From the NCBI GenBank assembly GCA_964517055.1, contig CAZFAQ010000002.1:24633-88632 (forward strand): a stretch of 64,000 nt of DNA. The letters are read 5' to 3'. Below the pieces are notes generated by a model, which had not been told where the DNA came from, searched no databases, and worked only from the letters and a program-made list of their open reading frames with translations. Within the stretch, counting starts at the first letter, position 1. Each line of letters opens with the position of its first letter. The DNA comes from an uncultured bacterium (GTDB taxonomy: Bacteria; Deinococcota; Deinococci; Deinococcales; Trueperaceae). The position numbers and the translations under genes are program-made. This document shows, piece after piece, positions 1,349 to 41,461 of the stretch.

Positions 1349-2062
1349 TCACCAGGTGGCCGTGGCCAGTTGCTCCCCGAGCCGCATGCCTTCAGCGATG
1401 CAACGGCTGGTGCTCGGCGGCCAGTCCGGAACCGCCACGCACGCGCCGGCTGCCCGGATGCGCTCAAGCCGACCCAGGCCCAGGGTCCTCTGGTCCCACT
1501 CCTCGCCGGCCAGCACCAACGTGCGCACGACGTGGGGCAGCGACCCCGCCTGTGCCGGGCTCGGGAGTGACCTCTCGGTGAACCCGAAGCCACGCTCCTT
1601 CAGGTCGAGGTAGAGGTCGTCGTACGCCATCTCGGATAGCCGGCCCTGCTGCTCTACGACGGTCCCGATCTCCAGACGCGCCCTGAGGAAGGTGCCGACG
1701 CACAAAGCGACCTCGCCCGCGTGCCTCGGCACGCCCTCCCACGTCTCCACGCCTATCACCTGCGCGTCCTCGACCAGCAACGCGGACGCCGTCGACTGGA
1801 GCAGGTGCAGCCGCTCCTCTGCCTCAAGCGCGTACTTGGCCAGGCGGTGGGCGTCCCACCTGCTACTCGCGCCACGGCCCAGCACCTCGGCCATCAGGCT
1901 GCCGGGCACCGCCTCGACCACTCCTGGGTCCTCATCGAGTGCGTAGACGGTGTCGAGGCTCGTCGTGAGCAGGGTGACGCTCTGTCCAAGTCGCGCGGCG
2001 CGCCAGGCGGCCTCGCTGCCTGTGACGCCGCCTCCCACAACTAGCGCGGAGGGAACGCTCAG
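1349..2062 (-). CDS. Small-form GidA-like FAD-binding protein (truncated MnmG/TrmFO-like Rossmann protein)
   Basis: ALVVGGGVTGSEAAWRAARLGQSVTLLTT matches the MnmG/GidA N-terminal dinucleotide fold. The ORF-track start (GTG 2038) removes strand beta-1, so I extend to CTG 2062, which overlaps the upstream stop as CTGA (see finding). Confidence 0.7.
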   Translation of the reverse strand: MSVPSALVVGGGVTGSEAAWRAARLGQSVTLLTTSLDTVYALDEDPGVVEAVPGSLMAEVLGRGASSRWDAHRLAKYALEAEERLHLLQSTASALLVEDAQVIGVETWEGVPRHAGEVALCVGTFLRARLEIGTVVEQQGRLSEMAYDDLYLDLKERGFGFTERSLPSPAQAGSLPHVVRTLVLAGEEWDQRTLGLGRLERIRAAGACVAVPDWPPSTSRCIAEGMRLGEQLATATW

Positions 2063-39531: not shown

Positions 39532-40443
39532 TCACTGTCCCAACGCGACCCGCACTGCCGGGGCGACGTCGAGGAGGTCCGACGCCGCTGCGAACGCCCC
39601 CGCCCAGGGGCCGACGGCGTAAAGCGGCACAGCGTTGCGTGTGTGGGTAGGAACTGTGACGTCCTCGAGGTTCCCGTGGTCCGACGTGATGACGAGGGTG
39701 ACCCCGCGCGCGACGGCCCCGGAGGCGTCGTTCACCAGGTGAGCCACGACCTGGTCGATGCGCTCGACTAGCTCACTACCGCGCTCCACGTCGCGGGCGT
39801 GACCGAAGGAGTCTGTCAGCCAGACGTCTAGAAGTGTGAACGCGTTGGTGGCGGCGAGCTCGCTCAGGACCCGCGCGGAGCCCGTGGTGCCGAGCGGAGG
39901 CCCAGCCCGTGTCAGGTGCTCACCCATGAGGTCGGACGGCACCGCGCGCCCCGCGGCGTAGTCCTCGGCTCCCAGCTGGCGCACACCCGCCGCCACGGCC
40001 CCGTAGGCCATCGCGTTGAGCCGGAACCTGCGCCCGCGGCGCGCCTCGAAGTAGCCGGGCGGGTAGGCGTTGGCCAGGCAGGCACCACCGGCCCTGACGC
40101 CGTCGTGGAACAGGTTGCCTGCGTCGAGCAGACGCTGGAGCGTGGGACCTGGCCACGGCCCGTAGTGCCCGTTCATCGCGTCGGCGCCGTTCACGCCGGT
40201 GATCAGCGTGGTCTGTCCAGTGGCCGACTGCGGCAGGCCAGGGTGCCCGAGCGTGGCGTCGAGCTCGCGGTAGACCACCGATCCAGAGGGCTCGTGGGGA
40301 GCCGGCTCGCCGGCGCCCCGACGTTCCAGGTCGTCGAGGGCCGGCGTGTGTGCCGTGCTCATGGGACCTTTAGGGCCATCCACGTCCTCGGCGGCGGCCA
40401 CGCCGAACCCGTCGAGGAACAGGAAGAGGACGCTACCCGTCAG
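39532..40443 (-). CDS. Alkaline-phosphatase-superfamily metalloenzyme (short cofactor-independent phosphoglycerate mutase / phosphopentomutase-like)
   Basis: ITSDHGN motif. The in-frame sequence upstream of the track start encodes SVLFLFLDGFG (the metal-site Asp strand), so I extend to CTG 40443, which overlaps the trpS stop as CTGA (see finding). Confidence 0.65.
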   Translation of the reverse strand: MTGSVLFLFLDGFGVAAAEDVDGPKGPMSTAHTPALDDLERRGAGEPAPHEPSGSVVYRELDATLGHPGLPQSATGQTTLITGVNGADAMNGHYGPWPGPTLQRLLDAGNLFHDGVRAGGACLANAYPPGYFEARRGRRFRLNAMAYGAVAAGVRQLGAEDYAAGRAVPSDLMGEHLTRAGPPLGTTGSARVLSELAATNAFTLLDVWLTDSFGHARDVERGSELVERIDQVVAHLVNDASGAVARGVTLVITSDHGNLEDVTVPTHTRNAVPLYAVGPWAGAFAAASDLLDVAPAVRVALGQ

Positions 40444-41447
40444 CCGACCCCCATGGCTCTCTGGGCCCTGGACAGCGTGCGCGCGGCGATCTCCCTGGCG
40501 CGCTCCGCGCCCCGCTCCAGGATGGCGTCGAGCCCGTCCCTATCGTCCATGTAGGCGCGGTAGCGCTCCTGGAACGGTCGCAGCATGTCGTTGACGGCCT
40601 GAACCGTGAGCTTCTTGAGCGTGCCGTAACCGCCGCCCTCCAGCTCGCCCTCGATGTCCTCGAGGCTGCGCCCAGACACCACGTGGGCGATGGTCATGAG
40701 GTTCCTGACGCCCGCGGAGGCCTGCTCGAAGCGCAACTCGCGGCCCGAGTCCGTGACGGCAGACATCAGCTTCTTCTTGACCGTCGCCTCGTCGTCTAGC
40801 AGGTTGATCAGGTGACCGGGCCTGTCCGCGCCGAGGCTCTTTGACATCTTCACCTCGGGGTCGTCCAGGCCCATAAGCCTCGCGCCCGCCTTGGGAAGCT
40901 CGACGTCGGGCAGCACGAACGTCTCGCCGAAGAGGTGGTTGAACCGCTCGGCGATGTCCCTGGTGATCTCGATGTGCTGCTTCTGGTCCTCGCCGACCGG
41001 CACCACGTCGGTGTCGTAGAGCAGGATGTCGGCGGCCTGCAGGACCGGGTAGACCAGGAGACCGGAGCCGACGCTCTCCCTGCCCTCGGACTTCGACTTG
41101 AACTGCGTCATCCGGTAGAGCCAGCCTAGAGGGGTCACGCATGAGAGCAGCCACGAGAGCTCGGAGTGCTCGCGCACGTGCGACTGAACGAAGATGATGC
41201 TGCGTTCCGGGTCCACGCCGGCAGCCAGGAACTGCGCGGCGGTCGAGCGGACCCTCTCCTTGAGACGGTCGGGGTCGACGGCCTCGGGGACGGTGAGGGC
41301 GTGCAGGTCGACGACGCAGAAGACGTTCTCCCTGGTGTCCTGGCCAGCTACCCACTGCCTCAGGGCCCCGATGTAGTTGCCTAGGTGAAGGTCGCCGGTC
41401 GGCTGCACCCCTGAGAAGACGCGTGCCCTGGCGGTGTCTTTGTCCAT
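40440..41447 (-). CDS. trpS: Tryptophan--tRNA ligase
   Basis: VFSGVQPTGDLHLGNYIGAL (HIGH-type) and KMSKS. The start is set to ATG 41447 (TATACT lies 8 nt upstream). Confidence 0.95.
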   Translation of the reverse strand: MDKDTARARVFSGVQPTGDLHLGNYIGALRQWVAGQDTRENVFCVVDLHALTVPEAVDPDRLKERVRSTAAQFLAAGVDPERSIIFVQSHVREHSELSWLLSCVTPLGWLYRMTQFKSKSEGRESVGSGLLVYPVLQAADILLYDTDVVPVGEDQKQHIEITRDIAERFNHLFGETFVLPDVELPKAGARLMGLDDPEVKMSKSLGADRPGHLINLLDDEATVKKKLMSAVTDSGRELRFEQASAGVRNLMTIAHVVSGRSLEDIEGELEGGGYGTLKKLTVQAVNDMLRPFQERYRAYMDDRDGLDAILERGAERAREIAARTLSRAQRAMGVG

Positions 41448-41455
41448 GACGGGCA

Positions 41456-41461
41456 AGTATA
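41456..41461 (-). promoter_or_regulatory. -10-like box (TATACT) 8 nt upstream of the trpS ATG at 41447
   Basis: The minus strand reads TATACTtgcccgtcATG. Confidence 0.4.

Follow-up and report, generated by a model that had tools for sequence, protein, structure and literature searches.

A putative CTG start codon overlapping the trpS stop completes a small metalloenzyme gene in an uncultured Trueperaceae bacterium

The trpS–metalloenzyme junction

The window analyzed here is a 64,000-nt stretch of contig CAZFAQ010000002.1 (positions 24,633 to 88,632 of the forward strand; assembly GCA_964517055.1) from an uncultured bacterium of the family Trueperaceae (Deinococcota). Relatives with 76% identity bear the same family label. 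On its minus strand, trpS, which encodes tryptophanyl-tRNA synthetase, meets the gene for a small putative metalloenzyme (hereinafter the metalloenzyme gene) at a CTGA tetranucleotide that contains the trpS stop codon. The first canonical start codon of the metalloenzyme frame lies downstream of a conserved N-terminal stretch, and the codon that opens this gene is the subject of the present report. The features of the junction are listed below.

40440–41447, minus strand: trpS, tryptophanyl-tRNA synthetase (Pfam PF00579 tRNA-synt_1b, E = 3.2e-70)
39532–40443, minus strand: full metalloenzyme gene as proposed here, 303 codons plus TGA (PF01676, alkaline-phosphatase-superfamily core)
40540–40542, minus strand: in-frame TAG that closes the metalloenzyme frame upstream (read from the sequence)
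40448–40452, minus strand: GGGGG run in the 3′ end of trpS, 4 nt 5′ of the CTG (read from the sequence)
40441–40443, minus strand: candidate CTG initiation codon, forming CTGA with the trpS stop and lying in the –1 frame relative to trpS
40402–40440, minus strand: codons +1 to +13 (TGSVLFLFLDGFG), N-terminal β-strand and Asp11 (GAC, 40413–40411), the latter a predicted metal ligand
40399–40401, minus strand: GTG, first canonical start codon in the metalloenzyme frame and start of the entry in the open reading frame (ORF) track
40360–40362, minus strand: ATG of the public gene call P0001 (276 aa, MSTAHTP...)

The last codons of trpS (335/338 codons) read GCC ATG GGG GTC GGC TGA on the minus strand, giving the C-terminus AMGVG* and placing the stop at 40442–40440. 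Read from the CTG, the metalloenzyme frame runs CTG ACG GGT AGC GTC CTC TTC CTG TTC CTC GAC GGG TTC GGC GTG, that is, CTG (40443–40441)-TGSVLFLFLDGFG-GTG (40401), which translates as L-T-G-S-V-L-F-L-F-L-D-G-F-G-V. No ATG, GTG or TTG occurs in this frame between the in-frame TAG at 40542–40540 and the GTG at 40401. The canonical-start-free run spans 46 codons and has a chance probability of ~6% at 68% GC, where ATG, GTG and TTG together account for ~5.8% of codons; since such a gap is not rare in itself, the case beyond chance rests on conservation across congeners.

That conservation is extensive. The CTGA (40443–40440), a –4 overlap on the same strand with no gap between the genes, is kept in all ten same-genus species-level genomes compared (10/10), where the junction reads GG CTG ACG GGC CGN GTN CTN TTC CTN TTC CTC GAC GG. 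Nine of these ten congeners lack any ATG, GTG or TTG from the in-frame stop to the Asp codon, and in the remaining one a TTG precedes the Asp by three codons. Codons following the CTG differ synonymously among the congeners (GTA/GTC/GTT, CGA/CGC/CGG, CTC/CTG/TTG and GGC/GGG), and the pooled ratio of nonsynonymous to synonymous polymorphism (pN/pS) over codons +1 to +13 is 0.20 in the metalloenzyme frame versus 0.87 and 10.9 in the other two frames. The synonymous variation and the low pN/pS indicate that the upstream stretch is coding, and a non-canonical start is therefore needed at or before codon +3. A coding score based on codon usage and blind to start codons has its onset exactly at the CTG at 40443. 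Further downstream, a variable loop extends from codon +15 onward in the congener alignment, and the GTG at 40401, which is GTC in one congener (L006), is not conserved as a start. The congener comparison shows that the predicted N-terminal strand and its Asp are coding and conserved, with purifying selection in this frame only.

The metalloenzyme and its probable start codon

Translated from the CTG, the product is 303 aa long and matches PF01676 with 66.9 bits (cut-off 24.3; E = 2.6e-18) over residues 195–295, in the C-terminal half of the protein. The NCBIfam equivalog models for cofactor-independent phosphoglycerate mutase (iPGM) and phosphopentomutase score 19–42 bits against cut-offs of 250–862, which places the protein outside both GpmI and DeoB. 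The local Pfam and NCBIfam matches are confined to the C-terminal half and do not cover the N-terminus, which was assessed instead by a family alignment and by aligning the family profile with PDB sequences.

In the alignment with 19 full-length homologues (20 sequences), the invariant columns are F9, D11, G12, G14, S73, T75, D211, H215, D255, H256 and H267, and the metalloenzyme motifs comprise D11, S73/T75, D211-x3-H215, D255-H256 and H267. The family profile aligns LFLFLDGVG with the iPGM N-terminus (VLVIMDGVG, LIVIDGWG), and D-x3-H, TSDHGN and HT with the iPGM motifs GDMVGH, TADHGN and HT. The N-terminal Asp of this strand in iPGM is a metal ligand, and the aligned motifs together correspond to the two-metal site of the B. 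stearothermophilus iPGM structure, with the N-terminal Asp among its ligands. The hhhhhDGxG strand and Asp that characterize the PF01676 superfamily are present in the product only when translation starts at or near the CTG. The remaining motifs, namely the Ser/Thr loop, D-x3-H, DH and the final His, are supplied by invariant residues, and metal binding by the protein is predicted.

The AlphaFold model of the CTG-started product has a mean predicted local distance difference test score (pLDDT) of 90.5 and a predicted template modeling score (pTM) of 0.92; residues 4–10 form a β-strand, and the first block of the chain has a pLDDT of 90. The top Foldseek matches are exclusively alkaline-phosphatase-superfamily cores (aPGM 2zkt, TAB5 alkaline phosphatase, iPGM and phosphopentomutase), with template modeling (TM) scores of 0.5–0.58, and of 0.27–0.51 relative to the targets. 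An enzyme without residues 1–14 would lack this confidently modeled N-terminal β-strand and the predicted metal ligand. The adjacency of the metalloenzyme gene to trpS is kept throughout the family, the AMGVG* C-terminus of trpS is likewise conserved, and 55 of 61 related genomes carry the metalloenzyme gene in intact form. By its sequence, the product is a small cap-less member of the alkaline phosphatase superfamily, representing a distinct, Deinococcota-wide subfamily kept next to trpS.

Homologues with ordinary starts begin MLFLFLDG, MVLLFLDG, MKLLFVFLDG, MNRLLFLFLDG and similar, so that the family N-terminus across Trueperaceae follows the pattern M-x(5–11)-D (e.g., MLFLFLDGVG). In the single-contig genome G033, the orthologue has a canonical GTG. 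A start at the CTG gives M-TGSVLFLFL-D, i.e., M-x9-D, which falls within this range, and no start-like codon other than the CTG lies at a distance from the Asp that is typical of the family. In L016 and L025, which belong to two other genera, the trpS junction encoding GVG and the stop reads GGT TGA, creating TTGA and a canonical TTG at the homologous codon. Whether this codon reads CTG or TTG depends on a synonymous choice at the third position of the final glycine codon in trpS, GGC yielding CTG and GGT yielding TTG. The comparative features by which near-cognate starts are recognized in Deinococcota are present here: no canonical start precedes the conserved N-terminus, CTG is found in 10/10 congeners, and L016 and L025 carry TTG. 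Initiation at CTG is very likely on this comparative evidence. We infer that it is this codon, and not the neighboring ACG, that opens the gene; CUG is one of the few weak codons with measurable start activity in E. coli (10.1101/063800), and CTG starts have been demonstrated or inferred for rpsL and folK in Deinococcus (PMC2830850).

These results agree with a first-pass annotation of the same DNA, which had pointed to the CTGA overlap, to the GGGGG run 4 nt 5′ of it and to the lack of a canonical start between the upstream stop and 40401, all of which can be read directly in the sequence. It had also recognized the hhhhhDGxG strand, which the orthologue alignment finds invariant family-wide and aligned to the N-terminal strand of iPGM, and had held that a CTG start would give a family-typical N-terminus, in keeping with both M-x9-D and the TTG of L016 and L025. 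Gene callers were expected to miss such a start, and the public calls for the metalloenzyme and its closest relatives indeed all begin downstream.

Other accounts of the junction make different predictions. Translation might start upstream of the Asp at another non-canonical codon, either the adjacent ACG (40440–40438) or a second CTG (40422–40420). The ACG is invariant in all ten congeners and in L011, a homologue from another Trueperaceae genus; the second CTG is present in most congeners, and L011, L018 and L020 have a usable CTG nearer the Asp (M-x5/7-D). The other validated junctions in this genome (described below) share CTG and have AGG, AGA, AGC, ACC or AAC at codon +1, which is not consistently near-cognate, and in L016 and L025 it is the junction codon itself that carries the canonical TTG. 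At the position of the second CTG, L006 and L008 have CTC, and a start there would give only M-F-L-D, a shorter N-terminus than that of any homologue. We regard a start at either of these codons as unlikely. An annotated canonical start, GTG 40401 or ATG 40362, could instead be real, leaving the LFLFLDG stretch untranslated and the enzyme truncated or degenerate. The frame offers no canonical starts but these, and the public gene calls use them. The upstream stretch, however, evolves as coding in the metalloenzyme frame only (pN/pS 0.20) and holds four residues that are invariant in the family, the Asp predicted to bind metal among them, as well as modeled strand 4–10, which is the first strand of the phosphatase core by the iPGM alignment; the GTG is replaced by GTC in L006, and the gene stays intact in most related genomes (55/61). 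A downstream start is very unlikely in view of these observations.

A third account invokes –1 ribosomal frameshifting on G GGG G near the end of trpS, which would produce a fusion of tryptophanyl-tRNA synthetase (TrpRS) with the metalloenzyme. The metalloenzyme frame is indeed –1 relative to trpS, tRNA-Gly could re-pair from GGG to GGG on ATGGGGGTC, and in five congeners no stop interrupts the –1 frame over the whole length of trpS, giving open frames of 640–660 aa. Long open –1 frames of this kind are nevertheless expected as shadow frames in genes with high GC content at third codon positions (GC3), where T is rare at codon position 3, and in this window the –1 frame is closed 32 codons upstream. 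No full-length fusion occurs among the 120 listed homologues (241–343 aa), the search covering lengths of ~170–530 aa, a range that a 640-aa fusion would exceed. We rejected the TrpRS fusion, which is highly improbable, on two grounds: the slippery G-run is not conserved, being interrupted in L003 and L004 (GGGAGT), and trpS and the metalloenzyme gene of other genera lie 23–90 nt apart in varying relative frames. Finally, an assembly or sequencing error, or recent pseudogene formation, might have removed a canonical start from this metagenome-assembled genome, which is 79% complete and comprises 159 contigs. The same junction recurs in ten species-level genomes and in an independent ENA assembly, with the frame intact under purifying selection, and the probability of such an artifact is close to negligible. 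The interpretation that we favor, and consider probable, is that the gene encodes a complete 303-residue metalloenzyme with a CTG start overlapping the trpS stop, used most likely by re-initiating trpS ribosomes.

Probable near-cognate starts elsewhere in the genome

We surveyed the whole assembly (2.57 Mb, 68% GC) with a home-made gene finder based on codon usage, which called 2164 genes. The screen is crude and yields many antisense and shadow-frame false positives, and only candidates checked in 11 congeners are counted below. Same-strand –4 overlaps genome-wide comprise 209 GTGA, 110 ATGA and 30 TTGA junctions, for a canonical total of 349, and 98 CTGA junctions. No canonical start is found in the next 8 codons at 30 of the 98 CTGA junctions. 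Of the junctions that show such a gap and also lack a canonical start close by upstream, 4/22 CTGA junctions have a coding signal of at least 6 bits in the gap, versus 0/87 offset-2 junctions (Fisher test, ~0.001, with the 6-bit threshold set post hoc).

Five further genes have the CTG of a CTGA junction as their only plausible start: YjeF, a GidA-like Rossmann protein, PxpB, HtpX and a small membrane protein. The GidA-like gene lies within the window:

2060–2062, minus strand: CTG of the GidA-like Rossmann protein at a CTGA junction; CTG in 5 congeners, ATG, GTG or TTG at the same codon in 6

Pfam Rossmann models match the CTG-started GidA-like protein from residues 5–7. For PxpB, the CTGA of this genome is GTGA at the same codon in one congener (G001). 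YjeF (NnrE/D) has CTGA in 10/12 genomes, the two outliers carrying ATG or GTG one codon downstream (MRLYTAAQM). The HtpX genes of the congeners compared all have an ATG, GTG or TTG 7–18 codons before the conserved RLPDVFTDPASGQ, and this genome has only the CTG(A). In the gene for the 101-aa membrane protein, cGGAGGtga-CTG-A is directly preceded by an in-frame TGA, and no canonical start follows until 39 codons later; its congeners use GTG or ATG.

Near-cognate starts other than the CTG of a CTGA overlap are also apparent. In phoH (contig C37:14951, plus strand; loci L043–L053), an ATA that overlaps the stop of the upstream gene as ATAA or ATAG follows GGAGGGGAAG in 10 of 11 genomes and an ATC takes its place in one; an in-frame TAG four codons upstream in four genomes leaves no alternative start there. 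In rpsL (contig C124:2653, minus strand), the sequence GAGGGAG-8 nt-CTG CCA ACG GTT AAC CAA places a non-overlapping CTG at the conserved Met position, and infC reads GGAGGTGGAGTTC-ATA. The rpsL CTG and infC ATA arrangements match those reported in Deinococcus (PMC2830850). An in-frame GTG three codons upstream of the rpsL CTG abuts the Shine-Dalgarno sequence and is the less likely start. Taken together, these observations lend good comparative support to CTG initiation as a real and recurrent feature of this organism.

Two other genes were noted in passing. A pfkB-family kinase gene (C88:1526, plus strand; L095–L106) has no ATG, GTG, TTG, CTG or ATH between the in-frame stop and PLVVVGDYAWD, either here or in G009. 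In its congeners the codon immediately preceding the Pro is GTG, or CTG in the case of G008 and G010; in this genome nothing resembles a start except GGAGG-7 nt-GTA, which overlaps the upstream TAG. A FabH-like gene (contig C13, minus strand, strand coordinate 19559) has a conserved GVTLLGAYAPPNV N-terminus 5′ of its first canonical ATG (...ERMMD), and an ATA with a Shine-Dalgarno-like motif ~20 codons before that ATG is a possible near-cognate start, located away from any gene junction.

Proposed coupling to trpS and relation to known systems

We propose that the ordinary initiator tRNA would read the CTG (40443–40441) as fMet, that ribosomes finishing trpS would re-initiate on it in place, possibly helped by the G-rich Shine-Dalgarno-like run just upstream, and that metalloenzyme output would be low and coupled to that of trpS. 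A special CUG-reading initiator tRNA was sought and discarded as an explanation: nothing beyond one initiator tRNA of the normal type (CAU, C1:A72) and one ordinary type-II tRNA-Leu (CAG) turned up in the genome, which is 79% complete. The G-run is GGGGGT in 8/10 congeners and GGGAGT in 2/10 (L003 and L004). The 3′ end of 16S rRNA, searched for in this genome as the source of the anti-Shine-Dalgarno sequence, is absent from the assembly, and the standard CCUCC was assumed; the GGGGG could act in a Shine-Dalgarno-like manner by pairing with CCUCC via a central G·U wobble. The run also encodes the conserved M-G-V of trpS, and its conservation alone is therefore no proof of a Shine-Dalgarno role.

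The start of trpS itself bears on the coupling. It is probably the ATG at 41447, rather than the TTG at 41456 given in the ORF list, and trpS is probably translated from a leaderless mRNA, in which case the metalloenzyme gene would depend on internal or coupled initiation. The region immediately upstream contains the following element:

41456–41461, minus strand: TATACT, a –10-like box 8 nt before the trpS ATG, leaving no room for a Shine-Dalgarno sequence; the TTG at 41456 lies inside the box

A leaderless pattern with a –10-like box has been described for Deinococcus-Thermus in PMC4007540 and PMC12340547.

Several observations weigh against CTG initiation by re-initiating ribosomes. CUG, AUA, AUC and AUU are measurable starts in E. 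coli, and weak ones, with CUG within the range of ~0.02–3% of AUG (10.1101/063800). The ACG at codon +1 is an invariant near-cognate and offers an alternative start. The G-run is not a strict Shine-Dalgarno match, and trpS coding, together with GC3 codon bias (GGC 5.7% versus GGT 1.2%), constrains both this run and the C of the CTG as well. Strict Shine-Dalgarno sequences of at least 4 nt precede 3 of the 6 validated CTG sites, compared with 57–72% of canonical NTGA starts and a background of 31%. In three other Trueperaceae genera, metalloenzyme orthologues without a canonical start (L011 in G008, L018 in G014 and L020 in G027) have a CTG at the family Met position 23–60 nt past the trpS stop, with no obvious Shine-Dalgarno sequence. 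A relative has also gained a GTG at codon +4 beside its retained CTGA (L094).

That relative, encoded on an ENA contig (66% identity; 1181–1215), has GTG instead of GTC at codon +4, and its gene call begins MLFLFLDG. A canonical start can thus be regained by a single synonymous change. The non-overlapping CTG of L011, L018 and L020 suggests that the 4-nt overlap is not required, leaving coupling plausible; given these loci and the non-overlapping CTG of rpsL, tolerance of CUG looks like a property of the lineage rather than one tied to overlaps. Dependence of metalloenzyme initiation on trpS termination is likely but unproven. The first-pass annotation had advanced CTG initiation by termination-reinitiation as an organism-wide feature: recurrence has stood up, in the GidA-like gene, four more CTGA cases and one ATAA, and re-initiation as the common route is plausible only, given the non-overlapping CTG of L011, L018 and L020.

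The C of the CTG occupies a fourfold-synonymous trpS site at which any other base would create a canonical start, and C is present in 10/10 species both here and at YjeF. The invariance is suggestive only, and could stem from selection favoring a weak start or from nothing more than GGC/GCC codon bias. We tentatively extend this to a broader proposal, which we hold to be possible rather than probable. All four NUGA junctions may serve as functional coupled starts in Trueperaceae, and perhaps in high-GC prokaryotes at large; TTGA, ATGA or GTGA would turn into CTGA time and again under GC pressure on the final codon of the gene upstream, CUG re-initiation would be adequate for housekeeping enzymes, and the C might be kept by selection for low output tied to the upstream gene. 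If this proposal is true, a few tenths of a percent of the genes in such genomes would be truncated in public annotation.

Near-cognate initiation and –4 coupling are each already well known, and the main practical consequence of our analysis is systematic N-terminal truncation. Standard gene finders admit only ATG, GTG and TTG, and the metalloenzyme is deposited without its first β-strand and predicted metal ligand. Six or more further genes in this 2.6-Mb genome appear to be truncated or mis-started likewise. Truncated models of this kind are then carried over into protein databases, predicted structures and reconstructions of metabolism. Earlier documentation of CTG starts in Deinococcota covers two Deinococcus genes, and such starts are now extended, on comparative grounds, to Trueperaceae and to the context of a CTGA overlap. 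That context points to a possible evolutionary route, in which the upstream gene changes synonymously at a third codon position, and to a possible mechanism, re-initiation that tolerates a weak codon.

Compared with iPGM and phosphopentomutase (PDB 1ejj, 5vpu, 2zkt and 3m7v), the metalloenzyme shares the hhhhhDGxG strand, the Ser/Thr nucleophile loop and the D-x3-H, DHG and H motifs, but is 303 aa rather than ~400–510 aa long and has no transferase or cap domain.

Non-canonical starts in Deinococcus were identified by N-terminal proteomics and comparative alignment, and include the CTG of rpsL, the CTG of folK/Deide_03051, the ATC of dnaA and the ATA of infC (Baudet et al. 2010, PMC2830850). 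The present cases resemble them in phylum and codon, and in having conserved fold elements 5′ of the canonical start, as was argued for Deide_03051. They differ in the genes concerned (metalloenzyme, YjeF, GidA-like, PxpB, HtpX and PhoH), in belonging to Trueperaceae and in the position of the CTG within a 4-nt overlap, a context that the 2010 study does not describe.

Termination-reinitiation coupling has been shown for this geometry with ATGA and TGATG (PMC6728339 and PMC10666635; review PMC12548453). A word search finds no mention of CTGA or CTG in PMC6728339, nor of CUG or near-cognate in PMC12548453, and within the literature library that was searched no paper treats CTGA junctions as start sites. 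As in the ATGA and GTGA systems (Huber et al. 2019, PMC6728339), the start codon proposed here shares TG with the TGA stop, the genes lie on the same strand and the overlap is conserved; here, in contrast, the start codon is CTG and coupling is predicted from the arrangement of the genes. The codons involved (CTG, ATA and ATC) belong to the same weak class as those characterized in E. coli (Hecht et al., 10.1101/063800). In E. coli, near-cognate codons almost never open housekeeping genes, whereas here they are kept across species at several enzyme genes.

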